From: Anaerolineales bacterium
GTDB lineage: Bacteria; Chloroflexota; Anaerolineae; Anaerolineales; RBG-16-64-43
Direction: 5' to 3'
NCBI GenBank assembly: GCA_049516595.1
Contig: JBEKSY010000015.1
Span: 2,938 to 66,937, forward strand
DNA length: 64,000 nt
Shown here: positions 5,097-32,659 of the stretch, piece after piece
How positions within the stretch are numbered: position 1 is the stretch's first letter
Layout: each line of letters begins with the position of its first letter
Program-made: the position numbers and the translations under genes
The notes under the pieces: model-generated
The model's input: only the letters and a program-made list of their open reading frames with translations
Told to the model about the DNA's origin: nothing
The model's database searches: none

Positions 5097-5130
5097 CGAG
5101 GACGCGCTCCGAGACTGGAGCGCGTCCTCG
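5097..5130. repeat. Perfect 14-bp inverted repeat (possible terminator or REP-like element)
   Basis: CGAGGACGCGCTCC-GAGACT-GGAGCGCGTCCTCG, about 110 nt downstream of the TIGR00266 stop. There is no clear U-tract. Confidence 0.6.
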
Positions 5131-5869: not shown

Positions 5870-6250
5870 CTACAATTGGGCGGTTCCTTTCCTGAAAATT
5901 CCCTCGGGTTTCTCGGCGTTCACTTGCCCGTCCACCTTGCCCCATCTTCCAGGCTTGCAGAAGGTCATATCTTCCCTGGCGACTTCCTCCGAAGAAGAAT
6001 CCGACTCGGCTGAGTAGCGCTGCAACTCTTGCCGAAAGGGGTATCGGGGATTGAACTCGTAGAGTAGAGTTCTGCCGACCTGTTTGGTTGTCAATACCCC
6101 GCCCGCTTCGAGTTTCACGAGCTGCTTCGGGATGGAATCGGGATCTGACTTGAAGAACCTTGCGATCTCGCGCGTGTAACCCTGCCCCCTCGTAAGAATG
6201 TAGACAAGGACCCTTTCAGCGCTTGTTGATCCAAGTATCGGTTCGAGCAC
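5870..6250 (-). pseudogene. Winged-helix (ArsR-like) regulator, C-terminus apparently frameshifted
   Basis: VLEPILGSTSAERVLVYIL...YTREIARFF...QLVKLEAGGVL...VGRTLLYEFNPRYPFRQELQ is a recognisable wHTH. After ELQ the frame becomes implausible, while an alternative frame reads ALLSRVGFF, resembling the family continuation as I recall it. Confidence 0.6.
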
Positions 6251-6312
6251 TATGAGTAGCCTTTCATCTGCCAGACTGACTCCGGCACGTGTGAGAAGAT
6301 GGCTCACATATG

Positions 6313-6357
6313 TCAGAGAATATCTGAGATTATGAACACGTCTAATGGGGTTGGCAA
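6313..6357 (-). promoter_or_regulatory. Sigma70-type promoter with overlapping operator for the wHTH gene
   Basis: Minus strand TTGCCA (6352-6357)-N17-CATAAT (6329-6334). The inverted repeat TCAGA-N5-TCTGA (6313-6327) spans the predicted start site. Confidence 0.55.
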
Positions 6358-6631
6358 GGGTGCGAAGCGGATGTCAACCGGCCTCGAGCTAGGCCGCGCG
6401 CCTCGCCGGGCTGATTCATGTATAGCCAATTTCAGACCGGGTAGGCCCCTGACCTTGGCAGACCTTACCCGCCCCCTCAGACTCCATGCCCCGAGGGGGC
6501 TATTCTTGGATCTACAACCACAACATCCATATAACGAATACTGACAACTTCTATGGAACTACGCCACAATTCTGTAACGATCACCGTCACCTAGCAACCC
6601 GTCTCCATGGAGGCAATACGCCGACTGAGTA

Positions 6632-8452
6632 TCAGGTCCCTTGGGTGAGCCATGAGGGAGCATTGATGGAGGCCAACGACTGGTGGCGGAAATAGGTGTT
6701 ATACAGTTCGGCATACAGCCCGCCCTGGGCCATGAGCATTTCGTGGGTCCCCATCGCCACGATTCGCCCCCGATCCATCACCACAATGCGGTCCGCGTGT
6801 CTAACCGTCGAGAGACGGTGGGCGATCACAATCGAGGTCCGGTGGCGCATCACCCTGCTCAACCCTTCTTGAATCTGCGACTCGGTGAATGGATCGACGC
6901 TCGCGGTGGCTTCGTCCAGGATTAGAATCGCCGGATTCTTGAGAAGCACGCGCGCCAGCGCCACCAGCTGCCTCTGCCCCATCGAAAGGTTCGAACCCCG
7001 CTCGCCCACATCGGTGTCCAGACCCTGCGGCAGGTCTTCAATCCAGTCCCCTGTGCTGATGTGCATCGCTGCCTGGATCACCTCGTCCCGAGTCACCTGG
7101 GGCTTTCCATAGCGGATGTTTTCCTGCACTGTGCCTGAGAAAAGGAACGGGTCCTGCGGAACCAAGCCTACGTGGGAGCGGTATTGGTCAAGATCCAGCC
7201 GGCGGATATCGCGGCCATCGATCAGGAGCTGCCCCGACTGAAATTCATAGAAGCGCAGGATCAGGTTGGCCACGCTGCTCTTTCCTGCCCCCGTATGGCC
7301 TACGAGGGCGATAGTCTCTTGCGGCCGAATCTCGAGGGAGTAGTCCGGGAGGACAATCTCCCTTCCGGTGTAGGTGAAGCCAAGATGACGGAACTCGATC
7401 CTCCCTTCGACCCGGTCTACGGGTTCCGAGGCGACCTGGCTCACCTTGGGTTCCGTGTCGATCAACGCGAAGACACGCTCCGAGGCCGACAGCCCGTCCT
7501 GAAACTGGCTCCAGAAGGAAGCAATGCTCATCATCGGGAAAAGATAGAAACCCACCGCTTGCATGAAGAGATACCAATCCCCCGGCGTGACTGCGCCGGT
7601 ACGGACGGAAAGACCGCCCGCATAGACCAGCAGAGCAATCCCCAAGCCGGAGGTCAATCCCATGATCGGGAAGATCGTGTCGAGCGTGATGCCTCTCCGC
7701 ACGCCCACCTGATACGCCTGGCGGTTGTTGGTCTCGAAGGTGTTGTAGATAGCGCGCTCCTGGCGGTAAGCCTTGGCGACCATGATCCCGCTCACGGATT
7801 CCTGAATCTGGGCATTGATCTTGGCCGTCACGCGCCGCGCGTGCTGGGTTACCTGCCGCGCGATCCGTCGGAATCCCAAGGCAATCGCCGCCGCGATTGG
7901 TGCCATGGCGACCAGCAGGAGAGCGAGCTTCCAGCTAACATGGAGGAGCCAAACGGTCAGCAATGCAACCAGGAGCACCTGGCTGATGAGACTCACCACC
8001 AGCGAGACCACATCAGAGAAGTCCTGGGTGTCCGAGGTGACGCGGCTGACAATCTTCCCGGAGGCATGCTCTTCGAAGAAGGACAGATCATGCCGGATTG
8101 TAGCGTTGAAGACGTCTTCCCGCAGCCTGAGGACGACGTTTCCGACGACGCGCGCCGAGACCCATTGCTGGATGAAATTCATGACCCAGCCCAAAAGGCC
8201 CAGCCCCAGGACGGCCCCGGCCAAGAGAAGCATCTCGCGGGTGCTGGGATTCCGTGCCACCACGTCAAGGGTCTGGGAAATGACAATCGGGCCGCCGGAG
8301 CCCGCGATGGAGTTGAGCGCGATCACGAGCGCAATGATGGCCACCTGGAGGGTATAGGGCTGGAAGTAGGCGATGATCCGAGCCAGCAGATCCCGATCTC
8401 GGTAATTGCGGTCGTAGGGCTCAGATTCCAGTCCGTCGAGAATAAAACCCAT
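6632..8452 (-). CDS. ABC exporter, fused permease/ATPase (heterodimer subunit)
   Basis: TMD plus NBD: Walker A GHTGAGKS, degenerate signature LSMGQRQ, Walker B LILDEATA. Confidence 0.95.
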   Translation of the reverse strand: MGFILDGLESEPYDRNYRDRDLLARIIAYFQPYTLQVAIIALVIALNSIAGSGGPIVISQTLDVVARNPSTREMLLLAGAVLGLGLLGWVMNFIQQWVSARVVGNVVLRLREDVFNATIRHDLSFFEEHASGKIVSRVTSDTQDFSDVVSLVVSLISQVLLVALLTVWLLHVSWKLALLLVAMAPIAAAIALGFRRIARQVTQHARRVTAKINAQIQESVSGIMVAKAYRQERAIYNTFETNNRQAYQVGVRRGITLDTIFPIMGLTSGLGIALLVYAGGLSVRTGAVTPGDWYLFMQAVGFYLFPMMSIASFWSQFQDGLSASERVFALIDTEPKVSQVASEPVDRVEGRIEFRHLGFTYTGREIVLPDYSLEIRPQETIALVGHTGAGKSSVANLILRFYEFQSGQLLIDGRDIRRLDLDQYRSHVGLVPQDPFLFSGTVQENIRYGKPQVTRDEVIQAAMHISTGDWIEDLPQGLDTDVGERGSNLSMGQRQLVALARVLLKNPAILILDEATASVDPFTESQIQEGLSRVMRHRTSIVIAHRLSTVRHADRIVVMDRGRIVAMGTHEMLMAQGGLYAELYNTYFRHQSLASINAPSWLTQGT

Positions 8453-8484
8453 CGTTTCGTTCCCCTCAAGCGATCTGTCAGAAC

Positions 8485-10239
8485 CTACTCATACCGGGAG
8501 AAGATCTTGCGATAATCGACGCTGCGCGCCATTAGGTCCTCATGCGTCCCCAGGTCGGCCAACTGGCCCCGGCGCAGGACCAGGATCCGGTCCGCCCACC
8601 GTATCTGACTTAGCCGGTGAGTAATCAGGAAGGTCGTTCGCTCCTGGCTGATCCGGCGCATGGCCCGCTGGATCAGGTCCTCCGTGGCGCTGTCGATCGC
8701 GCTGGTGCTGTCGTCGAGAATCAGGATCCGAGGATCCGTGAGAAAGGCTCGCGCGATCGCCAGGCGCTGACGCTGTCCCCCCGAGAGGGTCACGCCGCGC
8801 TCGCCAATGACCGTGTCGTAACCGTCTGCGAAGCTCATGATGAACTCATGCGCCTGAGCCTCTCTGGCCGCACGCTCGATTTCCTCCCGCGTCGCCTGCG
8901 CTCTACCGAAAGCGATGTTCTCAGCGATGGTGCGTGAGAAAAGGAAGATGTCCTGCTCGATCGTGGAAATCTGCGAGCGCAGAGATTCCAGGGTCCACTC
9001 GCGCACGTCCACGCCGTCGACACAAACGCTACCTCCAGCGACGTCGAAGATGCGGTTGATCAGCCGCGTGAGGGTCGTCTTGCCCGATCCTGTCTGGCCG
9101 ACAATGGCGATGGTCTCTCCCGCGTGCGCGGAGAAGCTCACCCCTCTCAGGACCGGCTGGCCGTCGTAGCCGAAAGACACCCGACGAAACTCGACCTCGC
9201 CGCGCATGGGCGCCGAGTGGCCTTGCTCGTTCCGATCCAGGTCAGATTTGGCATTGATCATCTCGAGGATCCGCTTCGCGCTGGCGATCCCCAGCTGAAC
9301 CAGGTCGAAGGAGAAGAGGGAAATCGAAGTCGGGAAGCGCAACCCGCCCATCAAACCCACGAAGGACACGACCTCCCCCAGAGTGATCAGGCCTGACCGC
9401 CAGACCAGCAAGGCATGGAAGAAGCCGGCCGCCCAGCAGATGCTGAAGGCGAGCATGGGGAAGTAAGTTGCCTCCACTTCCCCTTGCTTGACATAGTAGT
9501 CACGGAAGATGCGAGCGTTGTGGGTGAACTTGTTCCCCTCGAAGTGCTCCTGGACATTGGCCTTGACGACCTCGATGCCAGCGATGGCCTCCGCCAAGCC
9601 CGCGTTCACCACCCCAAACTGTTCGCGCATCCCAACCGTGACAGGGCTCAGGCGTCGGTTGTAGTCAACCAGGGTTACTACCAGAAGCACTACGAAGATC
9701 AAGGGCAGCAGGAGCAGACGCGGATTAATCGTGCCGATCAGGAGGACGGGGATGATGACGTTCATGATCGTGTCGGTGATCAGCATCATCCCCGGGCTAA
9801 ACATTAGATTGAGGGTGTGCACATCATTGGTGGCGCGAGCCATGATGTCGCCGATCCGCTGGCGCCCGTGGAAGGTCTGGCTTTTGCCCAGGAGGCTAAC
9901 GTACAGCTCGTGCCGCGCGTCACGTTCGATGCGCTGCGCCAGAAACTCACCGGAGTAGTTGCGCACCAGGCCGGTCAGCCCCTGCGAGGCAGCGGCGCCC
10001 AGAACGGCCAGCGCTGCCAGGATCAACTGCAGGTGAGTCCAATTCGTGCGGGTGATCAGGTCGAAGGCCCGGCCAATGAGGATCTGCACGTAGCTGAAGG
10101 CGGTGTTGTTTCCAATGGCAGCCAGGATCATCAGCAGGGGAAAAATCGGATAGCGGATCGCATGAGATGCAATCCAACGCACCGGTCCCGTCCGGTCATA
10201 ACGAAACTCCCCCTCAAGGGAAAACTCGGACTTTTCCAT
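8485..10239 (-). CDS. ABC exporter, fused permease/ATPase (heterodimer partner)
   Basis: GQTGSGKT, LSGGQRQ and Walker B LILDDSTS (Asp in place of the catalytic Glu). Together with the neighbour this gives the classic asymmetric heterodimeric exporter pattern. Probable start MEKSEF at 10239. Confidence 0.95.
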   Translation of the reverse strand: MEKSEFSLEGEFRYDRTGPVRWIASHAIRYPIFPLLMILAAIGNNTAFSYVQILIGRAFDLITRTNWTHLQLILAALAVLGAAASQGLTGLVRNYSGEFLAQRIERDARHELYVSLLGKSQTFHGRQRIGDIMARATNDVHTLNLMFSPGMMLITDTIMNVIIPVLLIGTINPRLLLLPLIFVVLLVVTLVDYNRRLSPVTVGMREQFGVVNAGLAEAIAGIEVVKANVQEHFEGNKFTHNARIFRDYYVKQGEVEATYFPMLAFSICWAAGFFHALLVWRSGLITLGEVVSFVGLMGGLRFPTSISLFSFDLVQLGIASAKRILEMINAKSDLDRNEQGHSAPMRGEVEFRRVSFGYDGQPVLRGVSFSAHAGETIAIVGQTGSGKTTLTRLINRIFDVAGGSVCVDGVDVREWTLESLRSQISTIEQDIFLFSRTIAENIAFGRAQATREEIERAAREAQAHEFIMSFADGYDTVIGERGVTLSGGQRQRLAIARAFLTDPRILILDDSTSAIDSATEDLIQRAMRRISQERTTFLITHRLSQIRWADRILVLRRGQLADLGTHEDLMARSVDYRKIFSRYE

Positions 10240-10416
10240 GGAAGAGACGACCTGTGGGCAATGTCGCATTATACATGGCGCCTCCCTCCCCGCACAGGGT
10301 GAACCCACGAGGGGCTGAGTGGACCTCCCGTACGGACCGGGCGGAGCCTACCTGGAATGGACCGGGCCGCAACTCTGTGATGAAGGAGAGGCCAAGCCGC
10401 TCATCCCTTCAGAGTT

Positions 10417-10444
10417 TTGACAAGCCAGCGAAAACAGGTAGAAT
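10417..10444 (+). promoter_or_regulatory. Sigma70 promoter of tRNA-Leu
   Basis: TTGACA-N16-TAGAAT ending 13 nt upstream of the tRNA. Confidence 0.7.
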
Positions 10445-10457
10445 GTGTGAACTCGTT

Positions 10458-10541
10458 GCCGAAGTGGCGGAAATGGCAGACGCGCTGCGTTCAGGGCGCA
10501 GTGGCCGCAAGGCCGTCGGGGTTCAACTCCCCGCTTCGGCA
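10458..10541 (+). tRNA. tRNA-Leu (CAG)
   Basis: GCCGAAG acceptor pairs with CTTCGGC. D-loop GGAAATGGCAGAC, anticodon arm CTGCG-TTCAGGG-CGCAG, long variable arm GGCC-GCAA-GGCC, T-loop GGTTCAACTCC. CCA is not encoded. Confidence 0.97.
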
Positions 10542-10753
10542 CTGACCGGACAAGTAGGTCCCTTTTCGTTTGTCCGTAGGCTCTCCCAAAGAATCAACGG
10601 CCAGCCCCCGGGGGCTGGACAATGTCTTCTGGCATGAAATCTTTCCAAAGCAGGCATCTGCCCGCTGAGTCAGCGCAGGGAGAGCCGCAAACCCCCGGAG
10701 CTACCCTTCGTTTCGAGGGCTGGCGCGCCCCTCCCTGCCCGCGGCCCGCCGCA

Positions 10754-23113: not shown

Positions 23114-24592
23114 ATGCCCAGAGACGAGAAGGCTGACCCGTTCGCCCTGCGAATTGCGCTCCTGTATGCCTTCGTGAGCGCGGTCTGGATTCTTGTTTCG
23201 GACCAGGTTCTTCTGGCTCTGATACATGATCCTCAGCAGATCGCGCTGGCGGAGACCTACAAGGGCTGGGGATTCGTCCTGGTCACGGCCGTTCTTTTGT
23301 ACGTTCTGCAACGACACCAGTTCGGACGAGCCGCCAAAGTCCAAGCGGAACGCGGCCGCGAGGCGGCCCGGCTTGCTGATATCCTCCAAATTGTCGCCCA
23401 GGCAATTATCGCGGTCGATCGAAACGAGCGGATCTTGGTATTCAACAAGGCGGCGGAGGAGACCTTTGGCTATCGCAGTGAGGAAATCCTCGGCCGCCAG
23501 CTTGACCTGCTGTTGCCTGCCCCATACCCTCGCGTCTTACGCACCCTCATTGCCTCGCTGGCCGACGGATCGAGGCCTCCTCCCCCCTCATTGAAGGGTC
23601 AGGAGATCTTCGCACGTCGCCGGGACGGCCAGTCGTTTGAGGCAGAGGCTTCCATCTCCAAGCTCGAACAGGGGGGGTTGACCCTTTTCGCCATCGCGCT
23701 ATCCGACGTTTCCGAGCGCAAACGAGCCGAGCAGGCTCTGCGCTTGTCCGAGGGGCAATATCGCGGCTTCCTCGAGCATGTTCCCCTCGGTGTCTACCGA
23801 AGCAATCCGCAGGGTCAACTTCTTGTAGCCAATTCTGCATTGGCCCAGATGCTTGGTTTCGAAACGGAGGATGACCTCCTGGCCCTCAACATTGGGCGAG
23901 ATCTTTATGCCGACCCTCAGGAGCGAGAGCGTTTGTTGGAGCTGCTCGATGCGGAAGGCGAGCTGCGCGGGGCCGAGCTCCGCCTGCGAAGAAGGGATGG
24001 AGAAGAAATCGTCGTGGTAGAGCACTCTCGAGCGGTCCACGACGAAGAGGGCCGCATTCTGTACCACGAGGGGACTCTTACCGACATCACCGACCGAATC
24101 CGCGCTGAAGAGCGGTTGCGCTTCCTGAGCACGCATGATCCCTTGACTGGCCTTTACAACCGTTCCTACTATGAGGAAGAACTCGTTCGACTGGGACGGG
24201 GGCGTGCCTATCCCGTGGGTGTCATCGTTGCTGATTTGGACGGGCTAAAAGACGTCAACGACACACGTGGGCACGAGGCCGGAGACGGTCTGCTCCGCGA
24301 TGCCGCCGAGATCTTGCGGGCTGCCTTCCGCGCCGAAGACGTCGTGGCCCGCATTGGCGGGGATGAGTTCGCCATCCTTCTGCCCAGCTCGGCGATTGCC
24401 GATGTACACCAAGCCATCCAGAGGGTCCGCGCTAAGGTCGCCGAGAGGAATCAGAATCAAGCGAGAGTGGTGCTCGGCATTTCGCTGGGATGCGGGGTGG
24501 CGCGCTCGGAGGAAGAACTGGGCAGCGCCCTGCGCGAGGCGGACGCCAGCATGTATCAGGAAAAAGTTTCTCAAAGAGAGCTGAAAAGATAG
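23114..24592 (+). CDS. Membrane-anchored diguanylate cyclase (2 TM - PAS - PAS - GGDEF)
   Basis: Two N-terminal TMs (WILVSD...YKGWGFV) and two PAS domains. The GGDEF domain has DPLTGLYNR, DLDGLKDVND, GHEAGD, I-site RAED and active site GGDEF. Confidence 0.95.
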   Translation: MPRDEKADPFALRIALLYAFVSAVWILVSDQVLLALIHDPQQIALAETYKGWGFVLVTAVLLYVLQRHQFGRAAKVQAERGREAARLADILQIVAQAIIAVDRNERILVFNKAAEETFGYRSEEILGRQLDLLLPAPYPRVLRTLIASLADGSRPPPPSLKGQEIFARRRDGQSFEAEASISKLEQGGLTLFAIALSDVSERKRAEQALRLSEGQYRGFLEHVPLGVYRSNPQGQLLVANSALAQMLGFETEDDLLALNIGRDLYADPQERERLLELLDAEGELRGAELRLRRRDGEEIVVVEHSRAVHDEEGRILYHEGTLTDITDRIRAEERLRFLSTHDPLTGLYNRSYYEEELVRLGRGRAYPVGVIVADLDGLKDVNDTRGHEAGDGLLRDAAEILRAAFRAEDVVARIGGDEFAILLPSSAIADVHQAIQRVRAKVAERNQNQARVVLGISLGCGVARSEEELGSALREADASMYQEKVSQRELKR

Positions 24593-24686
24593 GGGGACTT
24601 CACGAACGGGTTGGGGCGGTGGCAGCACCCTTGGGGCCCTCTGCTTTGGTAATGGTCGCAGAAGGGGCCCGCGCTGTGGAGGATGA

Positions 24687-27410
24687 TTGACGGACGCGCC
24701 GCTGGGTCTACCCCGGGACACGACCTCATTATGCCGGCAAATCCTGGATAGGGCCGGTAAGATCATCCAGGTCGATGAGGCTTGGCGTTGGGCGCTTGGA
24801 TTCAGCCAGGACGAGGTTCAGGGTCGCTCGTTCGCGACCTTACTAACCGAGCGGTCGGCGAAAGAATTCTCGACCGCATTGGGCGAATGGATGCGGACGG
24901 GAAAGCCACGAGAGCTGAAGGTTCAAGTGGTCCGCAAGGACGGACAGGTGCAGAGCTTCAACCTTCAAGCGGAAATCAGCCCCTCGCAGGAGGGGAGAAT
25001 CTCCTGCATCCTCGGCGGGGTGGCCGAAGCGCTTCCCGCCCACGAGCTGACTGTGCCCCCCGCCTCTCTCACGGACCAACTCATTGAAACAGCAACTGTC
25101 GCATTGGTTGGGCTGGACCGGGACGGCCAGGTGCGCCTTTTCAATCGGGCTGCTCAGGCGATTAGCGGATACTCTCTGGAGGAAATCCGGCAGAAAGGAT
25201 GGTTCGAACTGGTTGCGACGGAAGCCAAGCGCGCAGAAGCCCGCGCCATTTTCGAACGGTGGAAGCAGCACCGCGAGCTGGCGCCATCCTGCGAGTATCC
25301 CATCCTCACCCGAACTGGTCAGGTCAGGTACATGTCCTGGCGGAATAGCGAGCTCCATGACCCTACGGGTCAGCCCATACTGGTCTACGCTGGGATGGAC
25401 ATTAGCGAGCATACCGCTACAGAACAACAATTGGTCGAAAACACCCAGGCCCTTGCGGCCCTCATCCAGGCTTCCCCTCTTCCCATCATCGCTATCGACA
25501 GAGAGGGTCACGTCCGGATCTGGAACCCCGCCGCCGAGCAGACCTTTGGCTGGGGCCGCGACGAGGTCCTGGGGCAGGCATTGCCGACGGTTCCCCCAGA
25601 AGAGGAAGCTGAGTATCGGCAGCTGCGAGAGCGCGTCTTTCAGGGAGGGCAAATCGGAGGTACGGAGATCCGTCGCGTCCGCAAAGATGGTGGGCCGATC
25701 GATCTGAATATTTTCACCTCCCCTCTGTATGATGCCGAGGGCAAGGTGAGCGGAGCGATGGCCGTCTACATGGAGGCCACCGACCAGAGGCAGATTCAGC
25801 AAGAGCTTCAACTGCGGCTCGCTGAGCTTGAGGCGGTCAACCGGATATCAACTACGCTGCGCTCCGCCTCAACCATAGGGGAAATGGTTCCGATTCTGCT
25901 GGACGAAATACTAGCCGTTCTCAGTATTCAGACTGGGGCCATATACCTGAGGGATTATCTGGACGGAGGGATCCGGGAGGTGACGGTACGTGGGTGGCTT
26001 GCCAAAGCGGCCTCGAAGTACCGCGAGGGCGAGCGAAGCCTTGCCGGACACGTGCTCTCCAGCGGGACCGCGTATCTGATTGAGGACTTCTCCGCGGACC
26101 CCTGGACCCCCGAAGAGATGAAGGCGACCCTTCCCCACGGTTGGGCTGGGGCGGCGGTTCCGATTCGTTCGGCTCAGGAGGTGGTCGGGATTATCTTGAT
26201 CGCGGTGGAACGACCGCGCTCGGTTGAGAAGGCCGAGCTCAATTTGCTCGGGACGATTGCAGAAATCGCTGGCAACGCCATACATCGCATGCGCCTGCAC
26301 GCGGACATGGAGGCCAACCTCGACCGCCTGACCGCCCTTCACTCCATCGAACTGGCCATCAGCGCCAGCACGGATCTGCGCGTGACCCTGGAGATTCTCC
26401 TGGACAAGGTGACCGGCTTGCTCCAGGTCAGCGCCGCTGATGTCCTCCTGCTCAAATCGCACAGTCAAACCTTGGAATATGCCGCCGGTCGAGGCTTTCG
26501 AGGCGGCGCCACAACCAAGGCTCGCTGGCGACTTGGAGAAGGACTGGCGGGTCGGGCGGCTCTGGAACGCCGCGTGCTGACCGTCCTGGATCTGCCCTCC
26601 GATTCGAAGGTTTCTTTCAGCGAGGTTCGCCCACCCCGCTCCCGCTTCCTCGAAGGCGAAGGGTTTATCTCCCAGGTCGTCGCCCCCTTGATCGCCAAAG
26701 GGGAGGTCAAGGGGGTGCTGGAGATTTTTCACCGTGCCCCTCTCAACCCCAGCCCGGAATGGCTGGAGTTCCTGCAGACCCTGGCGGGCCAAGCCGCCAT
26801 CGCGATCGAAAACGCTTCCCTGCTGGACGACCTGCAGCGCTCCAATTTGGAACTCATGCTCGCATATGACGCGACCCTGGAAGGATGGTCGCGGGCCCTG
26901 GACCTGCGAGACCGCGAGACGGAAGGTCATACCCAGCGGGTAGCCGAGCTGGCCCTCCGCCTAGCTCGCACGATGGGTTTTCCCGCCGAGAGGCTGGAGC
27001 ATGTCCGGCGAGGCGCGCTCCTGCACGACATCGGAAAAATGGGGATCCCTGATGGAATTCTCCTGAAACCCGGGCCGCTTACGGAAGAGGAATGGCAGGT
27101 GATGCGGATGCATCCGGTGTACGCACGAGACCTTCTCTATCCCATCACTTACCTGCGTCAGGCCATCGATATTCCCTTCTGCCACCATGAGAAGTGGGAC
27201 GGGACCGGCTATCCGCGCGGTCTGAAAGGAGAGGAAATCCCGCTCCCGGCCAGGATCTTCGCCGTGGTCGACGTCTGGGATGCCCTTCTCTCGGACCGGC
27301 CCTACCGGGCAGCCTGGTCCAAAGAGAAGGCTCTGGCCCACCTGCAGGAGCAGTCCGGAAAGCATTTCGATCCCAAGGTGGTGGACGTGTTCTTGAGCTT
27401 CGAACTCTAG
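24687..27410 (+). CDS. Cytoplasmic c-di-GMP phosphodiesterase (PAS x3 - GAF x2 - HD-GYP)
   Basis: ETEGHTQRV, canonical LLHDIGK (27024-27038), and HHEKWDGTGYP. TTG start with a GGAGGA SD. Confidence 0.95.
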   Translation: MTDAPLGLPRDTTSLCRQILDRAGKIIQVDEAWRWALGFSQDEVQGRSFATLLTERSAKEFSTALGEWMRTGKPRELKVQVVRKDGQVQSFNLQAEISPSQEGRISCILGGVAEALPAHELTVPPASLTDQLIETATVALVGLDRDGQVRLFNRAAQAISGYSLEEIRQKGWFELVATEAKRAEARAIFERWKQHRELAPSCEYPILTRTGQVRYMSWRNSELHDPTGQPILVYAGMDISEHTATEQQLVENTQALAALIQASPLPIIAIDREGHVRIWNPAAEQTFGWGRDEVLGQALPTVPPEEEAEYRQLRERVFQGGQIGGTEIRRVRKDGGPIDLNIFTSPLYDAEGKVSGAMAVYMEATDQRQIQQELQLRLAELEAVNRISTTLRSASTIGEMVPILLDEILAVLSIQTGAIYLRDYLDGGIREVTVRGWLAKAASKYREGERSLAGHVLSSGTAYLIEDFSADPWTPEEMKATLPHGWAGAAVPIRSAQEVVGIILIAVERPRSVEKAELNLLGTIAEIAGNAIHRMRLHADMEANLDRLTALHSIELAISASTDLRVTLEILLDKVTGLLQVSAADVLLLKSHSQTLEYAAGRGFRGGATTKARWRLGEGLAGRAALERRVLTVLDLPSDSKVSFSEVRPPRSRFLEGEGFISQVVAPLIAKGEVKGVLEIFHRAPLNPSPEWLEFLQTLAGQAAIAIENASLLDDLQRSNLELMLAYDATLEGWSRALDLRDRETEGHTQRVAELALRLARTMGFPAERLEHVRRGALLHDIGKMGIPDGILLKPGPLTEEEWQVMRMHPVYARDLLYPITYLRQAIDIPFCHHEKWDGTGYPRGLKGEEIPLPARIFAVVDVWDALLSDRPYRAAWSKEKALAHLQEQSGKHFDPKVVDVFLSFEL

Positions 27411-27433
27411 GCGGACGGCGAGAGGCAGGCCAC

Positions 27434-27462
27434 TTGTGTCGAGCCAGGACCACCCCTATAAT
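27434..27462 (+). promoter_or_regulatory. Sigma70-type promoter upstream of the peptide gene
   Basis: TTGTGT (27434-27439)-N17-TATAAT (27457-27462). Confidence 0.7.
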
Positions 27463-27567
27463 CATCCGAAGCATCTCAAATTGCCTGACAGTTCCATTCC
27501 CCAGGGGCCCGGAGGCAGGCTCCAACCGGAACAGCTTGAACTTAGCCCGGAGAGGAGGTGAGCGAGG

Positions 27568-27723
27568 ATGACCATGAGCGCGGAGGAGTTCTATGCTCGA
27601 CTCCAGTCAGAGGAAGAGACTGGATTGATCGCCGACCTGCGGCCACTTACGGAGATTCGGGAGCCCGAGCAGGTAGTGAAGGCAACGAGGAGTCCACAAG
27701 GGTACTGGTTCGGGTGGAACTAG
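27568..27723 (+). CDS. ComX-like pheromone precursor peptide (51 aa, C-terminal Trp)
   Basis: MTMSAEEFYARLQSEEETGLIADLRPLTEIREPEQVVKATRSPQGYWFGWN*. Strong SD AGGAGGTG ending 7 nt before the ATG. Below the ORF-track length cutoff. It lies directly before a ComQ-like gene. Confidence 0.85.
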   Translation: MTMSAEEFYARLQSEEETGLIADLRPLTEIREPEQVVKATRSPQGYWFGWN

Positions 27724-27789
27724 GGAGGCATGTCGGTTTGAAACATATCGCATCAAGAGCCTAGCCGGCAAGCCTCGTTAGTGGTAGAA

Positions 27790-27825
27790 ACGATCGTAGC
27801 GTGTTCTTGCACACGCTACGATCGT
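27790..27825. repeat. Perfect 15-bp hairpin between peptide and prenyltransferase genes
   Basis: ACGATCGTAGCGTGT-TCTTGC-ACACGCTACGATCGT. Confidence 0.85.
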
Positions 27826-27939
27826 CGCGGACTGGGATAGATCTCCCCCGATCAGAAGCGAGGACTTGGCATCATTCCCGCTCAGGTGTCACGAGTTCAC
27901 CAGGCAAGATCTGATTTCTCTCGAATGCGAACGAACCCA

Positions 27940-28908
27940 ATGGAATCACTGTTTGAGCGCGAGAAGGCAAGGTTGCTCTCCCATCCAAGCGTCACTAGGT
28001 GGGCAGACCTAGAGGGTTGCCTTCGCACAGTGCTCGCCTCTCCTCGTCATGACTGGGAATTACCATCTCTCGCCTGCAAGGCGGTGGGGGGCGACCCGCA
28101 GGCGGTGGGGCCGGCAGCCGCCGCGTTGATCTGCGAGCAACTATCAATCACGCTGGTTGACGACGTCCTTGACGAGGATCCCAGAGGCCTTCACAATACG
28201 ATCGGATCAGGGCGGGTAGCAAACATCTCCTTGGCGCTGGTCGGCCTTGCGTTCGAACTTGTCAAAGATCTGCAAGTCGAGCCCTGGCGCAAACTGGCCA
28301 TCATCATGTCCCTGGCGAGCATGGAGCTTGAAACGGCGTACGGCCAGCACTTAGATGTTACCGAGCCTAGGACGGAAGAGAGCTATTGGAAGATCCTGCA
28401 AAGAAAGAGCACCCCTTATTATGCTGTAGCCTTGTCCGTCGGCGCCCTGGCTGGCGGGGCAAGCCTGGAGATCTCACAGAAGGTGAGCGAAATAGGAGGC
28501 CTGATCGGGGAGATCACGCAGATCTATGACGACCTCACCGATGCTCTTCAAACCCCGGCCAATCCGGACTGGAACCGCCCAGGAGCAAACCTGGCGATCC
28601 TCTACGCGATCAGCGCTCCTCATCCCGACCAGGAAGCGTTCAAAGGAGACCTTGCGACCATCGCCGACGACAAAACTCTTCGCCACGCTCAGGGTCTGCT
28701 AATTCGCTCGGGCGCCGTCAGCTACTGCGCGTATCATGTCGCTCAAAGGGTCCGGGCCGCTAGGGCGCTCGTCCACCGGACCGGGTTCGCTGACCCTGAT
28801 CCTCTTCTGACCTTGCTCTCCAGCCAGGCTGCTCCCCTATCGCGACTCTTGAGTGAGCTAGGGGTCTCCAGACCCCTGGACCTCCTGACAGAGGAACATG
28901 AAGTCTAG
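27940..28908 (+). CDS. ComQ-like isoprenyl-synthase-fold protein (candidate peptide Trp prenyltransferase)
   Basis: DDVLDED (28159-28179), GQHLD, RKSTPY, QIYDDLTD and C-terminal SGAVSY. It lacks the GKRxRP and post-FARM RRG IPP-binding motifs of chain-elongating synthases. The start may be 27886, 27925 or 27940. Confidence 0.82.
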   Translation: MESLFEREKARLLSHPSVTRWADLEGCLRTVLASPRHDWELPSLACKAVGGDPQAVGPAAAALICEQLSITLVDDVLDEDPRGLHNTIGSGRVANISLALVGLAFELVKDLQVEPWRKLAIIMSLASMELETAYGQHLDVTEPRTEESYWKILQRKSTPYYAVALSVGALAGGASLEISQKVSEIGGLIGEITQIYDDLTDALQTPANPDWNRPGANLAILYAISAPHPDQEAFKGDLATIADDKTLRHAQGLLIRSGAVSYCAYHVAQRVRAARALVHRTGFADPDPLLTLLSSQAAPLSRLLSELGVSRPLDLLTEEHEV

Positions 28909-31900
28909 AATTGTGCGGAATGGGCCGGTGGGGCTGGCCGGAGCTCTCTTGCTTTCCTTCGCTGCCCTCGCCTTTTCCGCGTTCTATGCGTTGCAGGCGG
29001 CCTTTCTCCTTCCCTACCCCGGGTTGAGTTTCGGGCCGGACTGGATCATCGTAGGAATTACGCCCTGCGAGGTCCAGGAAAGTTGGTGCCACCACAACCA
29101 AGGTCTGCTGCAGGTCGGAGACCGCCTGACGAGAGTGGGGGACCTGACCTACGAGCAGTTCCGGACGGCTCGCACCCAAGTCCCCTTCGCGGGGAACCTG
29201 CCTGGGGATCTTGTTCCTGTTCAATACCTGCGCCAGGGAGTCCAAGGTGAAGCCCTTTGGCAAATGCAAGGGGCTACGCTGGCCTTGACCCTGAGTCGGC
29301 TAGCGGGCATCCTTCTCTTCCTCCCGTTCTGGGCAGTCGGGACTATTGTCTTACTGCTTGCACGGCCAAGGGACAACAGGGCGATCCTGCTCACCTTGCA
29401 GAACTTTGTCACCGCCGCATGGGTGTCTGCTGGAGCCGTCTCATTCCTGCAAGGAGCCTTTTCTTCCCAAGTCCTGCACTCGCTCTCTTGGGTGCTAGCT
29501 CCCCTTTACTTGCATCTGCATTTGGCGGTGCCAAACTCGCTCTTCCCGCGTCTCCGGAAGGGCCTGCTCCCAGCCCTCTATGGAGCATCGGCCGTCCTGG
29601 CGTCCCTGGAGCTACCGCGCTTCCTCCCCGATCAGGTCTACCTTGTCCCGATTCTCGTTCTCATCGCCGGGTCCCTGTCGATTCTCTTCTACCGCTTGCT
29701 GCGAGGAGACCTCGCGGACCGGCCGGCGGTGCGGCTGATGCTCGCCGCCATTGCACTCGCCTTTGGGCCGGGGCTTATTCTGGTCCTCATTCCCAATCTC
29801 CTCGGGGAGCCGACCTACCAGAGCGTTGGCCCGAACATTTCCGTCTTTGCTTTGCCGCTCTTGCCGGGGCTCTACGCCTTTGCGATCTACCGCAAGCGCC
29901 TCGGCAACCTGGAGCTTCGTGCCAACCGTGTTCTTACCTTCTACAGCTTCGCCCTCTTGTATGCCACGGCCTTCGTGCTCACCTACATGCTCGGCTCCCG
30001 GCTGATTCATCTTCCCAGCCCGGCCTTGGCCTTCAGCCTGGTCATCTCCCTCGTCTTTGTTGTGGCTGCGCAGCCTGTCTACATCGCCTTTCGAAAGTTG
30101 GCGGAAAGGTTGCTCTACGGAGCCCATTTCCAACCCGCGGAAATCGTTCGCGTGTTCGCCAACCGGCTGCCCACAGCAACCTCCAAGGAAGCCGTCGCTC
30201 ACCTGCTCGAAAGTGATGTGACGAGCAGTCTCCTCATCCGACAGTCGGCGCTGGTTCTGCTCCGCAACGAACGGGCGGAAATCATCTACCAAACGGGGAT
30301 CGAGATTGAGGCCTCCAGCCTGGGAGAGGATCAGATCCGCGGACTGACCGCCTCGGCCGGAAAGTACCATGTGCCCGAAGAGACTGAAGGCCCCTTTGGG
30401 TGGGTTCGCCTAGCCATCCCGGTTGAGACCGGAGGCGAGATCATCGGCCTGTGGCTCTTGGGCCGCCGCGACCCGGACGACTTTTACCCGCAGAGGGACA
30501 TCCGCCTGCTATTCACACTCGCGAGCGAACTGACTATTTCGCTTGAATCTCTCCGCCTGGTCGACGAAAGCAAACGCCGGGCGAATGAGTTCGAGGCGCT
30601 CTACCAAACAGCACGAGACCTGACGACCAAGGAGGACCTCAACTCCCTCCTGCGCACGGTAGTGGAAAGGGCCATCGCGCTGGTGGACGCCCAAACAGGC
30701 GGGATCTTCCTCCCCCAGGGGGAAGGGAGAAAACTCAAATTGGCGATCGCGGTCGGATCCGCGGCTGAAGAGCAACTCGCGGCCATGGAAGGCGATGGAT
30801 TCGACCCGGAAGCCCTGGAATTGAGGGCGCCGGTCTTGGTGAATGACTTCGATCGCGGCCCCAATCGAAACTTCATCGCGAGAACACATGGCGTTCGAGC
30901 CTACGTTCGCTGCCCGATTCTTCAAGAAGAGGAACTTGCAGGATTGCTGGTGGTTGCCATGACCGCTGGAGCCGCGGACCAATTCACCCACGCGGATGTG
31001 CGGCTGCTCAGCCTCTTCGCCTCTCTGGCCAGCAACATGATCCGCACGGCGCTACTCTATGATGAGACCCGGCAGCGAGCGGAACAACTCAAGCTTCTTT
31101 ACGACGCCGGGCTGGGGCTCAACAGCCTGCTGGACCCCAAGGAACAGCTCAAGTTGCTCTTCCAGAGCGCCCTGCAGGCTCTGCAGGCAGACGAGGCCGA
31201 GTTCTTCCGCCACGACGCGGCCTCCGGCGAGCTGAAAGGGGAGATGGTGCTCGGGATCGATCCGGCCCATTCCTCGGAGTGGAAAGAACTCAGTTTCCCT
31301 GAGGGTGCCAGTGCTGGGCCGGCAGGTTGGGTGGCCGCCCGGCGCGAGGCCATCAACCTCCCCGACGCGCCCACTTTCCCCGGATGGGTGACGGTCGACC
31401 CCCGGGTTCATTCTGGGATCTGGGCGCCGATCGAGAGAGAAGGGAGGCTGCTCGGGGTATTCGGCGTGACCAGCACCCGGGGTTCGGCGTTTTCCAACCA
31501 GGACGTCGACCTGCTTCTCCTCTTCGCCAATCAGGCGGCCGTGGCCATGGAAAACGCCCGCCTGTTCACCGAAACCGAGCTTCGCTTGCGGCGCATGTCT
31601 TCCTCAAGAAGCATCGACACCGCCATCACGGGCAGCCTGGATCTGCGAGTGACCCTCAACGTCCTCCTGGATCAAGTCACAACCCAACTGGGAATGGACG
31701 CGGCAGACGTCTTGCTCTTCAATCCGCATACCCAGCTCCTGGAGTTCGCCGCCGGACGAGGCTTCCGGTCTCGAGCCCTTCAGAACACCCGTCTCCAAGT
31801 AGGAAAGGGTCTGGCTGGGCGAGCGGCGCTCGAGCGCGAAATTGTTCACATCTCCGACCTGATCGGGCAACCCGGAGAGCTGTCGAAATCGCCTCTTCTG

Positions 31901-32659
31901 GGAAGAGAGGACTTCGTCGAGTACTACGGCGTCCCCTTGATTGCCAAGGCTCAAATCAAGGGCGTCCTGGAGGTATTCAATCGCAGGCACTTGGAACCCG
32001 ATCCGGAGTGGATGGAGTTCCTCGAGACCATTGCGGGTCAGGCGGCCATTGCGGTCGATAATGCCAGCCTGTTCGACAGCCTGCAACGCACCAATCTGGA
32101 TCTGACCCTCGCCTATGACTCGACCCTGGAGGCACTGGCCCGAGCCCTGGACCTGCGTAACCACGAACCCGAGGGGCATACCCTACGGGTGACCGAACTG
32201 ACCCTCCAAATCTCACGGGTCCTGGGCATCGGGGAAGCCGACCTGGTTCATCTGCGACGGGGCGCCCTGCTGCACGATGTGGGAGATCTGGGCGTCCCCG
32301 AGGCGGTGCTCCTAAAGGCCGGACCCCTCAACGACCGCGAGTGGAACCTGATTCGACGACACCCTGTTCTGGCCTTCGAGCTCCTTTCCCCCATTGAGTT
32401 CCTGCGCCCCGCCCTCGACATCCCCTATTGCCACCATGAGAAATGGGATGGGACGGGGTACCCGCGGGGCCTGGCTGGCGAGCAAATCCCCACCGGGGCC
32501 CGCATCTTCGCCGTCGTGGACGTCTGGGACGCGCTGACCTCGGATCGTCCCTTCCGTGAAGCGTGGTCCCTAGACCGCACCCGGAAATATGTCTGGGACA
32601 AGGCCGGGACTCACTTCGACCGATCGATTGTCGAGATCTTCCTCGAGTCAGTTTCTTAG
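28898..32659 (+). CDS. Membrane receptor: ComP-like sensor (TM - PDZ-like loop - about 9 TMs) - GAF x4 - HD-GYP
   Basis: LPYPGL...LQVGDRLTRVG extracellular loop, about 10 hydrophobic helices in total, and four GAF repeats each ending in an LL..(F/I)A...(A/S) helix. The HD-GYP domain has EPEGHTLRV, LLHDVGD and HHEKWDGTGYP. Its start overlaps the upstream stop by 11 nt. Confidence 0.9.
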   Translation: MKSRIVRNGPVGLAGALLLSFAALAFSAFYALQAAFLLPYPGLSFGPDWIIVGITPCEVQESWCHHNQGLLQVGDRLTRVGDLTYEQFRTARTQVPFAGNLPGDLVPVQYLRQGVQGEALWQMQGATLALTLSRLAGILLFLPFWAVGTIVLLLARPRDNRAILLTLQNFVTAAWVSAGAVSFLQGAFSSQVLHSLSWVLAPLYLHLHLAVPNSLFPRLRKGLLPALYGASAVLASLELPRFLPDQVYLVPILVLIAGSLSILFYRLLRGDLADRPAVRLMLAAIALAFGPGLILVLIPNLLGEPTYQSVGPNISVFALPLLPGLYAFAIYRKRLGNLELRANRVLTFYSFALLYATAFVLTYMLGSRLIHLPSPALAFSLVISLVFVVAAQPVYIAFRKLAERLLYGAHFQPAEIVRVFANRLPTATSKEAVAHLLESDVTSSLLIRQSALVLLRNERAEIIYQTGIEIEASSLGEDQIRGLTASAGKYHVPEETEGPFGWVRLAIPVETGGEIIGLWLLGRRDPDDFYPQRDIRLLFTLASELTISLESLRLVDESKRRANEFEALYQTARDLTTKEDLNSLLRTVVERAIALVDAQTGGIFLPQGEGRKLKLAIAVGSAAEEQLAAMEGDGFDPEALELRAPVLVNDFDRGPNRNFIARTHGVRAYVRCPILQEEELAGLLVVAMTAGAADQFTHADVRLLSLFASLASNMIRTALLYDETRQRAEQLKLLYDAGLGLNSLLDPKEQLKLLFQSALQALQADEAEFFRHDAASGELKGEMVLGIDPAHSSEWKELSFPEGASAGPAGWVAARREAINLPDAPTFPGWVTVDPRVHSGIWAPIEREGRLLGVFGVTSTRGSAFSNQDVDLLLLFANQAAVAMENARLFTETELRLRRMSSSRSIDTAITGSLDLRVTLNVLLDQVTTQLGMDAADVLLFNPHTQLLEFAAGRGFRSRALQNTRLQVGKGLAGRAALEREIVHISDLIGQPGELSKSPLLGREDFVEYYGVPLIAKAQIKGVLEVFNRRHLEPDPEWMEFLETIAGQAAIAVDNASLFDSLQRTNLDLTLAYDSTLEALARALDLRNHEPEGHTLRVTELTLQISRVLGIGEADLVHLRRGALLHDVGDLGVPEAVLLKAGPLNDREWNLIRRHPVLAFELLSPIEFLRPALDIPYCHHEKWDGTGYPRGLAGEQIPTGARIFAVVDVWDALTSDRPFREAWSLDRTRKYVWDKAGTHFDRSIVEIFLESVS

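Follow-up and report, generated by a model that had tools for sequence, protein, structure and literature searches.

Identity and motif state of the enzyme

[quoted passage not shown] The open reading frame begins with ATG and ends with TAG, and an identical protein is present in the database. The protein matched PF00348 of Pfam at 51.8 bits, and an AF2 model (mean pLDDT 94.4) displayed an all-alpha IPPS fold; a Foldseek search with this model returned GGPPS/IPPS structures at TM scores of 0.70-0.77 (about 0.74), the top matches being canonical synthases only in a searched PDB set that contained no ComQ or StheQ structure. The features of the enzyme gene are:

27940..28908, + strand: IPPS-fold enzyme gene, predicted Mg2+-dependent peptide tryptophan prenyltransferase, 322 aa
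28039-28065, + strand (residues 34-42): SPRHDWELP, in place of the IPP-binding GGKRxRP, from alignment and conservation
28159-28188, + strand (residues 74-83): first Asp-rich motif with shortened loop, DDVLDEDPRG (D74, D75, D78, D80, R82, G83)
28342..28413, + strand (residues 135-139 and 156-158): GQHLD and K156-S-T, with Q136 invariant and D139 nearly invariant
28519..28572, + strand: second Asp-rich motif Q194-I-Y-DDLTD (QIYDDLTD, residues 194-201), followed by PANPDW, from alignment
residues 257-262, + strand: SGAVSY of the window enzyme

The motifs that the first-pass annotation had listed as retained in an IPPS-fold enzyme (DDVLDED, GQHLD, K-S/T, and DDLTD) were all found in this reading frame; in canonical IPPS, GQxxD and the KS/T lysine are ligands of the allylic diphosphate and Mg. 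The enzyme was then aligned with E. coli IspA and IspB, Pantoea CrtE, and the canonical synthases of the same genome. The alignment bore out the replacement of GKRxRP by SPRHDWELP, with SP-RHDWELP filling the GGK-RxRP position such that Pro stands in the Lys column and Asp in the second Arg column, as well as the reduction of RRG to PRG, the RRG-xPT segment being cut to P-RG, its loop having lost 2 and 3 residues. Furthermore, the stretch of 6-7 residues with the conserved GK that follows the second Asp-rich motif is missing, and a family-specific PANPDW is found instead. The lost residues, together with an indel pattern common to ComQ in the alignment (a shortened first-motif loop and a deletion beyond the second motif in both), support the proposed peptide prenyltransferase. 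The proposal that SGAVSY represents a ComQ-like motif stood only in part: it aligns with the invariant AGVxQY of ComQ, but this column reads CGSLEW in E. coli IspB, and SGAVSY is therefore not diagnostic of ComQ.

These features are conserved among homologues, and the motif state of the window enzyme is thus not a matter of chance. Residues D74, D78, G83, Q136, K156, Q194, D198, D210, and W211 were invariant in 75 homologues, Trp39 of SPRHDWELP was nearly invariant across the family, and DDxxDxDPRG was present in 124 of 155 family sequences; the family as a whole lacked GGKRxRP, an RRG Arg, and the GK loop beyond the second motif. The second motif, which had been described as canonical in contrast to the degenerate one of Bacillus ComQ, is indeed DDxxD in 149 of the 150 family sequences, the sole exception being NDxxG in P0081, the most divergent member. 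In IPPS-fold Trp prenyltransferases, a Gln immediately preceding the second motif lies near the indole N-H, as does the first Asp of the second motif in some of them (PMC13290415, a review), and the Gln preceding the second motif in the window family, Q194, is invariant. This conservation bears on the reading that the protein is catalytically dead and serves a peptide or receptor as scaffold or chaperone, in the way of the small, non-catalytic subunits found in heteromeric prenyl synthases. The lost IPP site and the translational coupling of the gene to a receptor gene would agree with such a role; however, the metal- and diphosphate-binding residues of the donor site are all invariant or nearly so across 75-155 sequences, which is unexpected for a dead enzyme and renders this reading highly improbable.

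Phylogeny and distribution of the enzyme family

The genome of the window organism encodes two canonical synthases that scored 224 and 192 bits against PF00348, compared to 52 bits for the window enzyme, and NCBIfam equivalogs scored the window enzyme at 16-61 bits with cut-offs of 275-600 (the best at 60.6 versus a cut-off of 450). Family members scoring at least 305 bits were present in 17 of 31 related genomes, and canonical synthases in these genomes scored 100 bits or less. The distribution is patchy, both same-genus genomes being without a member; the window gene is an accessory gene and not a housekeeping synthase. Altogether, the enzyme clade comprises about 285 clusters at 50% identity in Chloroflexota and Acidobacteriota, and those public sources that give names call the homologues 'geranylgeranyl pyrophosphate synthase' or 'polyprenyl synthetase'.

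Clustering inside the IspA/CrtE clades, the outcome that had been named as counting against a peptide prenyltransferase, was not observed; the family formed a separate clade outside IspA/CrtE and IspB, with support of 99/97, then 100/99; its stem is long, measuring 1.94 in the first tree. In the first tree, built without StheQ, the family, ComQ, and the canonical groups formed a polytomy. The addition of StheQ broke the ComQ branch and placed the family, ComQ, and StheQ on one side of a branch with 89/93 support, which is unstarred and connects long branches; StheQ itself grouped with ComQ (99/95) and not within the window family. The shared indels support common ancestry with ComQ, and the second tree moderately supports the grouping of the window family with ComQ and StheQ. 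Profile alignment by hhalign of the family to ComQ gave an E-value of 1.5e-9 over 274 columns and to StheQ an E-value of 9e-14, and BLASTP of the window enzyme against StheQ gave 27% identity over 146 aa (E 1e-11). With the family profile, the median score of canonical IPPS was 60 bits, compared to 32 for ComQ and 74 for StheQ; a ComQ profile of 10 sequences gave 30.0 bits for the window enzyme, a median of 22.7 for the family, up to 31.3 for canonical IPPS, 50 for StheQ, and >450 for true ComQ. Neither the family profile nor the ComQ profile revealed a special HMM-score affinity of the family to ComQ, and by its sequence scores the window enzyme falls outside the ComQ family (IPR033965) proper.

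These comparisons also weigh on the possibility that the enzyme is a divergent but ordinary chain-elongating isoprenyl diphosphate synthase producing FPP, GGPP, or a longer product. The window enzyme and the canonical trans-IPPS (IspA, CrtE, IspB; PF00348) have in common the fold, both Asp-rich motifs, GQxxD, and the KT lysine, homologues are publicly named 'geranylgeranyl pyrophosphate synthase', and the family profile scores canonical synthases above ComQ. However, the IPP-binding elements of the canonical enzymes (GGKRxRP, one RRG Arg, and the GK loop) are missing throughout this long-stem clade, whose members reside in a peptide/sensor cassette; the window enzyme falls far under every equivalog cut-off, two canonical paralogues already exist in the genome, and the gene is accessory, separately branching, and tightly linked to peptide and sensor genes. 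A chain-elongating synthase is accordingly a very improbable identity for this protein.

A tryptophan-bearing precursor gene upstream of the enzyme

Two features are located between the upstream neighbors and the enzyme gene:

27568..27723, + strand: precursor peptide gene, 51 aa, MTMSAEEFYARLQSEEETGLIADLRPLTEIREPEQVVKATRSPQGYWFGWN, from the peptide profile and conservation
27790..27825, + strand: perfect 15-bp hairpin ACGATCGTAGCGTGT-tcttgc-ACACGCTACGATCGT, without a U-tract, between the peptide and enzyme genes

The precursor gene lies 216 nt upstream of the enzyme gene, is preceded by GGAGGTG 7 nt 5' of its ATG, and encodes a peptide whose leader is conserved and whose C-terminal core contains WFGW (WxxW). 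A peptide profile built from 17 precursors recognized the window peptide (E 6e-19) and detected an upstream, same-strand homologue of about 50 aa in 76 of 80 related loci; the remaining 4 loci are cut within 493 nt upstream. The leaders follow the consensus M.IE.F..LL.S....L..L..L, and WxxW is found near the C-terminus of 71 of the 81 peptides. Trp accounts for 0.4% of leader residues and 8% of core residues, a 20-fold enrichment, and only Trp is invariant in the core; the Acidobacteriota peptides carry tails of 10-18 residues beyond it. The window precursor had no Pfam or NCBIfam match, hhalign with five ComX sequences detected no similarity of the peptide family to ComX, the Pfam ComX family (PF05952) had no match in the genome of the window, and StheX was not matched by the peptide-family profile. 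Judged from these sequences, the precursor is an analogue of ComX and not a detectable homologue of it. No export or processing genes for the precursor were identified.

It is conceivable that the substrate is a small molecule such as free tryptophan or indole, which the enzyme would prenylate or convert in the manner of Ord1, with the sensor detecting the product and the small reading frame serving another role. Ord1 (PDB 9V4G, 9V4J), an IPPS-fold enzyme with a small indole substrate, is the sixth-best PDB match of the family profile at 61.5 bits, and the canonical second motif is unlike that of the peptide-specific ComQ and StheQ. Nevertheless, this reading is unlikely, given that the small reading frame belongs to a conserved leader-core family with Trp enriched 20-fold in the core and a near-universal WxxW, that the precursor and enzyme genes occur together in 76 of 80 loci from two phyla, and that the homologous StheQ modifies its adjacent peptide (bioRxiv 10.64898/2026.08.29.745113).

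Perfect stems of at least 9 bp were present at the position equivalent to the hairpin in 39 of 70 related loci, compared to a shuffle mean of about 5, and TAGCG(T/C)G(T/G)GG is common to many of these intergenic stems. Scans of 27300-28100 for sigma-70 promoters and intrinsic terminators called nothing, the hairpin included, and TTGTGT-N17-TATAAT fell below the threshold of the promoter scan. The hairpin may be an attenuator, a stabilizer, or a processing site that sets the ratio of peptide to enzyme.

A ComP-homologous sensor coupled to the enzyme gene

The receptor gene and the co-oriented genes upstream of the cassette are:

28898..32659, + strand: receptor gene, 1253 aa, its start overlapping the enzyme gene by 11 nt, from Pfam and hhalign
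23114-24592, + strand: PAS-GGDEF diguanylate cyclase, co-oriented, upstream context, from Pfam
24687-27410, + strand: PAS-GAF-HD-GYP phosphodiesterase, co-oriented, directly upstream context, from Pfam

The receptor begins with a multi-pass membrane sensor of about 560 aa containing a PDZ-like loop, which is followed by GAF domains and HD-GYP. Alignment of this sensor with the N-terminus of Bacillus ComP by hhalign gave a probability of 93% and an E-value of 2.5e-7 over 489 collinear columns, end to end, when the ComP side consisted of four sequences; a single split ComP from B. mojavensis gave only an E-value of 0.024. Of 68 related loci, 67 have an adjacent ComP-like sensor domain. Rearranged loci keep this linkage: the sensor gene of one subfamily is divergently oriented, and Acidobacteriota loci contain a second precursor gene between the enzyme and sensor genes. 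The sensors of most relatives are histidine kinases (HisKA or HisKA_3 with HATPase_c); in the window subclade the output consists of GAF and HD-GYP, and Pfam found no histidine-kinase output in the window receptor. The HD-GYP motif of the window receptor is HDVGD instead of the HDxGK of its relatives, and the activity of this output is therefore only putative.

Taken together, the linkage to a Trp-rich precursor and a ComP-homologous sensor, along with the two canonical paralogues in the genome, supports the earlier proposal of a peptide prenyltransferase rather than a chain-elongating enzyme, and this support comes mainly from context.

Proposed mechanism

The fold, the motif state, the position of the clade, and the linkage of the three genes in two phyla are observed; the acceptor residue, the chemistry, export, and the relation of ligand to receptor are proposed. 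It is likely that the window enzyme is a prenyltransferase of the trans-IPPS fold that has exchanged IPP as acceptor for a Trp in the WxxW core of the upstream 51-aa precursor, and the downstream membrane receptor probably senses the product, in a system like the Bacillus ComX pheromone system that resides in Chloroflexota and feeds c-di-GMP signaling. From the motifs and known IPPS chemistry, we infer that both Asp-rich motifs, Q136/D139, and K156 would coordinate Mg2+, hold an allylic donor (C10-C20) by its diphosphate, and ionize the donor, while the dismantled IPP pocket (GGKRxRP, the RRG loop, and the GK loop, the last replaced by PANPDW) would accommodate the peptide tail. The indole would attack the allylic cation, as in ComQ, StheQ, and Ord1, and the conserved leader probably docks the precursor on the enzyme. 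The lipidated peptide would then be exported, processed, and recognized at the membrane by the ComP-homologous domain of the receptor, whose gene lies downstream and is translationally coupled. This domain would drive a histidine kinase in most relatives and a GAF/HD-GYP module in the window subclade; with the latter output, c-di-GMP turnover or binding would be the target of the signal.

Comparison with known systems

The nearest parallel is StheQ/StheX from Sphaerobacter thermophilus, also a member of Chloroflexota, for which tryptophan farnesylation and crystal structures have been reported (bioRxiv 10.64898/2026.08.29.745113). The StheX/StheQ locus was recovered here as a peptide gene, an enzyme gene, and an overlapping gene for a ComP-like sensor with GAF, HD-GYP, GAF, and GGDEF domains, and it shares with the window the phylum, the IPPS fold, and the peptide-enzyme-sensor (HD-GYP) gene order. 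GGKRxRP is lost in both enzymes (GAPSPRW in StheQ, ASPRHDW in the window enzyme), and StheX likewise has Trp near its C-terminus (...GTLGWWA). The first-motif pattern D-D/E-x-x-D-x-D is common to ComQ (DDLEDEDN-HHA), StheQ (FDEIEDGD), and the window enzyme (DDVLDEDPRG). Dissimilar from the window cassette, StheX has another leader with a weak match to PF14407 (Frankia_peptide), the Sphaerobacter sensor has GGDEF in addition, and stheX is preceded by a B12-radical SAM gene. The main text of the preprint makes no mention of a receptor (the word 'kinase' is absent) and leaves the role of the modified peptide open (bioRxiv 10.64898/2026.08.29.745113).

The second Asp-rich motif sets the enzymes apart. 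StheQ has a pseudo-second motif, NDxxD, in which Asn N215 occupies the column of D197 in the window enzyme, and the N215D substitution abolished 98% of StheQ activity; across ComQ RO-E-2 and StheQ, the change from Asn to Asp at this motif led to a 90-98% loss (bioRxiv 10.64898/2026.08.29.745113). Since the motif is a canonical DDxxD here, the geometry or chemistry at the acceptor must differ from that of ComQ and StheQ. A further possibility is modification of the adjacent peptide by something other than simple C3 prenylation of Trp, for instance at another atom or residue, at both Trp residues, or by reverse prenylation. The core contains two conserved Trp (WxxW) and not one, the intact motif implies a full three-metal site where StheQ has a single metal (bioRxiv 10.64898/2026.08.29.745113), and the 10-18-residue tails in Acidobacteriota extend beyond the core; however, the characterized IPPS-like peptide prenyltransferases all target Trp (2026 review, PMC13290415), and the Trp residues are the sole invariant residues of the core. 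We regard such an outcome as improbable, and Trp prenylation in the WxxW core remains the preferred reading.

The ComQ-ComX-ComP-ComA system of Bacillus subtilis and its relatives is similar in its components: the enzyme has the IPPS fold, the precursor is about 55 aa long and carries Trp close to its C-terminus, and the sensor is a multi-pass membrane protein; the sensor domains are homologous end to end, and some relatives of the window receptor also have HisKA_3. The systems differ in gene order (Q-X-P in Bacillus, X-Q-P here), in the second motif (degenerate GDYYV or NDxxx in ComQ, DDxxD in the window family), in the output (kinase in ComP, GAF/HD-GYP in the window receptor), and in the hosts (Firmicutes versus Chloroflexota and Acidobacteriota). 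We know of no ComP-like sensor reported with Ord1, PalQ, or ChrPC. These proteins, namely Ord1 (PMC12510300), PalQ (PMC10853753), and the P domain of ChrPC, likewise represent an all-alpha prenyl-synthase fold repurposed for indole prenylation, with a conserved Gln before the second motif (Q194 in the window enzyme). Ord1 differs in acting on a free small indole substrate; PalQ and ChrPC, both compared by description, differ in that PalQ is nearer to terpene synthases and requires a terminal Trp, and ChrPC (Hubrich et al. 2024, cited in PMC13290415) is fused to a cyclase.

Implications

More broadly, the three-gene module of a WxxW precursor, an IPPS-like prenyltransferase, and a ComP-homologous sensor could represent lipidated-peptide quorum sensing outside Firmicutes, with the receptor fused to c-di-GMP enzymes in the window subclade and in Sphaerobacter, and the enzyme clade could stand between chain-elongating synthases and ComQ/StheQ as an evolutionary intermediate; we consider this wider reading about as apt to be wrong as right. 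With the receptor fused directly to c-di-GMP enzymes, a peptide signal would lead to a second-messenger change without a two-component relay, and a ComP-type sensor with HD-GYP (plus GGDEF in Sphaerobacter) would tie peptide quorum sensing to c-di-GMP. A Trp prenyltransferase with a canonical DDxxD would put to the test the current model, according to which the indole is positioned by the pseudo-motif Asn; if true, this Asn is dispensable for indole prenylation. The enzyme family would also add a class of biocatalysts for peptide lipidation, and the StheQ/StheX pair gains a candidate receptor. As the approximately 285 clusters carry synthase names wherever they are named, metabolic reconstructions would be misled. 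The Chloroflexota and Acidobacteriota are abundant and largely uncultured, and to our knowledge cell-cell signaling is almost unknown in the Acidobacteriota and in the Anaerolineae and Caldilineae of the Chloroflexota; for these phyla, the cassette provides a concrete candidate signal, enzyme, and receptor.

Genomic context of the prenyltransferase-like gene

The strongest evidence on the enzyme is its genomic context, namely the adjoining peptide and receptor genes.

Features of the cassette region (window coordinates)
23114-27410, co-oriented: PAS-GGDEF cyclase and canonical PAS-GAF-HD-GYP phosphodiesterase, directly upstream of the cassette
27568-27723, + strand: precursor peptide ORF, 51 aa, C-terminal ...SPQGYWFGWN, GGAGGTG before the start
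27790-27825: perfect hairpin without a U-tract, between the precursor and enzyme genes
27940-28908, + strand: enzyme ORF, 322 aa, with an identical protein in the protein collection

The precursor ORF lies on the same strand as the enzyme gene and 216 nt upstream of it; a longer enzyme ORF starting from GTG at 27886 is possible, but the ATG position is the start in most homologues. With the peptide profile, a homologue was detected ahead of the enzyme gene and on its strand in 76 of 80 related loci; in the four loci without a match, the sequence available upstream was no longer than 493 nt. The peptides share a leader (M.IE.F..LL.S....L..L..L) followed by a C-terminal core in which Trp is enriched 20-fold. 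WxxW was present in 71 of 81 peptides, and nine of the remaining ten carried a Trp no more than three residues from the C-terminus. No relation of the window-type peptide to ComX or StheX was detectable.

A second precursor gene was found downstream of the enzyme gene in Acidobacteriota loci. Two homologous precursors were observed in Acidobacteriota loci of Thermoanaerobaculia and Holophagales (L032, L039, L040, L043, L044, L046, L053, L058, L064, L069, L072-L074, L076 and L080), one on each side of the enzyme gene except in L043, where both precede it. These Acidobacteriota peptides have tails of 10-18 residues after the WxxW core, the implication being that the C-terminus is trimmed or that an internal Trp is modified.

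At least nine perfect base pairs were found in the precursor-enzyme gap of 39 of 70 loci, compared to a shuffle mean of about 5, and the hairpin sequence is partly conserved in Anaerolineae and Caldilineae (TAGCG(T/C)G(T/G)GG ... complement). The hairpin could work at the RNA level, as an attenuator or stabiliser, or serve proteins as a palindromic binding site. Its position is shared by L062, L068, L038, L009, L025, L014, L029, L015 and other loci.

The enzyme retains the donor site and lacks IPP-binding elements

Motifs of the window protein
residues 34-42: SPRHDWELP
residues 74-83: DDVLDEDPRG
residues 135-139: GQHLD
residues 156-158: KST
residues 194-201: QIYDDLTD
residues 257-262: SGAVSY

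The motifs listed by the first-pass annotation are all in place, with one correction. The window protein was aligned with E. coli IspA and IspB, Pantoea CrtE, and canonical synthases of its own and related genomes. This alignment bore out the proposed loss of GKRxRP, as SP-RHDWELP occupies the GGK-RxRP columns, and the proposed reduction of RRG, as only P-RG is left of the RRG-xPT segment that follows the first Asp-rich motif; furthermore, the conserved-GK residues after the second Asp-rich motif are deleted, with PANPDW instead. The supposed ComQ-like character of SGAVSY held only in part: the resemblance to ComQ AGVxQY is real, but the motif is not diagnostic, because that column reads CGSLEW in IspB.

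D74, D75, D78, D80, Q136, D139, K156, D197, D198 and D201 are intact, and the donor-site positions show no or almost no variation among 75 homologues. DDxxDxDPRG occurs in 124 of 155 family sequences, and the second Asp-rich motif is DDxxD in 149 of 150. The Pfam polyprenyl_synt match to the window protein reached only 51.8 bits, and the NCBIfam synthase equivalogs gave 16-61 bits against cut-offs of 275-600. A confident AlphaFold2 model (75 homologues; mean pLDDT 94.4) was assigned by Foldseek to the trans-IPPS fold, with a TM of about 0.74 to GGPPS and other IPPS.

Distribution and phylogeny of the family

Two canonical synthases are already encoded in the genome (224 and 192 bits to PF00348), and the window enzyme is thus an extra paralogue. 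The family profile retrieved 285 clusters (50% identity, E <= 1e-30) among 1.84 billion representatives, and 272 relatives in species-representative genomes, most of them from Anaerolineae and Caldilineae (Chloroflexota) and Thermoanaerobaculia and Holophagales (Acidobacteriota). Scores in 31 related genomes were bimodal, with true members at 305 bits or above and canonical synthases at 100 or below. A member was present in 17 of the 31 and in neither of two same-genus genomes; the enzyme is an accessory gene. Two of the related genomes, G269 and G411, each encode two full-length members (305-416 bits), which suggests parallel cassettes, possibly of different 'pherotypes', within one genome. 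In one locus of the family (L033), on a 5.7-kb contig, the peptide, enzyme and sensor resemble the Anaerolineae type although the MAG carries the label 'Promethearchaeota archaeon'; this is probably a binning artefact rather than an archaeal system.

A tree was built from 23 family members, 10 ComQ, 25 canonical synthases, and IspA, IspB and CrtE; the ComQ set comprised records returned from the protein collection by a B. subtilis ComQ query, the query itself excluded. The family was monophyletic (support 99/97); its stem measures 1.94 changes per site. Clustering inside IspA/CrtE, which the first-pass annotation had named as evidence against its ComQ-type proposal, was not observed, because the family lies outside both the IspA/CrtE and IspB clades. 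When StheQ, the Sphaerobacter thermophilus enzyme, was added, it grouped with ComQ (99/95), and the family, ComQ and StheQ were separated from all canonical synthases by one branch of moderate support (89/93), on a tree that carries a long-branch warning.

By HMM scores, the family appears not especially close to ComQ: its profile gave a median of 60 bits to canonical IPPS, 32 to ComQ and 74 to StheQ, and the ComQ profile gave the window protein 30 bits. Profile-profile comparisons with ComQ (E 1.5e-9) and StheQ (E 9e-14) were significant, at superfamily level.

Comparison with ComQ and StheQ

IPPS-fold Trp prenyltransferases are already known (ComQ, StheQ, PalQ, ChrPC and Ord1), and a 2026 preprint extended ComQ-like enzymes to Chloroflexi: it shows that StheQ attaches a farnesyl group to Trp68 of StheX, the 69-aa peptide adjacent to it, and reports crystal structures (bioRxiv 10.64898/2026.08.29.745113, August 2026). 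In the literature searched, no description was found of the window enzyme's clade with its canonical second motif, of the WxxW precursors particular to it, of its occurrence in Acidobacteriota, of its systematic association with a sensor homologous to ComP, or of the variant with HD-GYP output.

The Sthe locus was found by scanning 400 Chloroflexota genomes for a StheX-tail DNA pattern inferred from the residue numbers in the preprint. It lies on the minus strand (L121, G265:C2:1108000-1124000, 4370-10657) in the order B12-binding radical SAM (491 aa), StheX (69 aa, C-terminus ...APIGTLGWWA), StheQ (300 aa) and an overlapping sensor (1113 aa). The 300-aa ORF agrees with all preprint-numbered residues (D82, D85, E86, D89, D91, A167, K174, Q212, N215, D216 and D219). 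The DNA has stheX ahead of stheQ, whereas the preprint text places it downstream. The 1113-aa protein has a ComP-like sensor (85 bits to the window-family sensor profile) followed by GAF, HD-GYP, GAF and GGDEF domains. The window cassette thus shares the architecture of the biochemically proven StheX/StheQ pair, including c-di-GMP output. The 1113-aa receptor is unmentioned in the preprint's main text, where the word 'kinase' is absent, and the preprint's discussion describes the biological role of modified StheX as unknown. StheX matched Pfam PF14407 Frankia_peptide weakly (28 bits; cut-off 48). Members of PF14407 are RiPP precursors, and StheX may therefore be a substrate of the radical SAM enzyme as well.

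StheQ and the window enzyme are 27% identical over 146 aa (E 1e-11), and SPRW in the former and SPRHDW in the latter replace GGKRxRP. Bacillus ComQ is gapped at the same places and shares the D-D-x-x-D-x-D pattern (DDLEDEDN-HHA). However, ComQ and StheQ have Asn at the D197 column, where its change to Asp costs 90-98% of activity (bioRxiv 10.64898/2026.08.29.745113), and nearly every member of the window family has Asp at this position. The family would either position the indole differently or perform a variant reaction.

A ComP-like receptor with c-di-GMP output

The receptor gene overlaps the enzyme gene by 11 nt and encodes 1253 aa. Pfam found no match in its N-terminal multi-pass membrane domain of ~560 aa, behind which come GAF domains and HD-GYP. 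The profile of this N-terminal domain matched in 67 of 68 loci with enough flanking sequence. The sensor gene follows the enzyme gene directly, follows it with the second peptide gene in between, or lies upstream in divergent orientation, and because it occurs in three placements, its linkage to the enzyme survives rearrangement. Aligned with four Bacillus ComP N-termini from comQXP loci, the domain matched end-to-end (probability 93%, E 2.5e-7, 489 columns), across the PDZ-like first loop, membrane bundle and juxtamembrane GAF-like part. The reference comP of B. mojavensis (L084, 6175-8501) is split into ORFs of 309 and 461 aa and looks frameshifted or pseudogenised, as is familiar in some Bacillus isolates.

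HD-GYP output was present in 13 of 56 complete receptors, the window's included; the others are, or appear to be, histidine kinases, 33 of them by direct match and three, sampled from the ten unmatched receptors, by Pfam. Some kinase-type receptors have HisKA_3, as in ComP. In one subfamily (L041, L042, L047-L049, L055, L060, L066, L067, L078 and L079) the gene for the ComP-like kinase, which has HATPase_c with or without HisKA_3, does not follow the enzyme gene but precedes the peptide gene in divergent orientation; the peptide cores of this subfamily are of the W(Q/E/M)xW type.

In the window receptor's HD-GYP (32150-32480), HHEKWDGTGYP is retained, whereas the HDxGK seen in the neighbouring phosphodiesterase and in eleven HD-GYP-type relatives is replaced by HDVGD. 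This change is specific to the window lineage, and the window copy may therefore bind c-di-GMP instead of hydrolysing it. Three c-di-GMP proteins (cyclase, phosphodiesterase and receptor) are encoded within 9.5 kb.

Proposed mechanism

In IPPS chemistry, donor-site residues bind Mg2+ and the allylic diphosphate and ionise the donor, and the intact residues of the window enzyme would do likewise. On the acceptor side the IPP-binding elements are gone; the peptide tail would enter the freed pocket, where one of the WxxW indoles would attack the cation. Q194 and D197 would be near the indole N-H, as their equivalents are in related enzymes (review PMC13290415). After export and trimming, the modified peptide would be sensed by the ComP-like domain, which in this organism would control the GAF/HD-GYP module.
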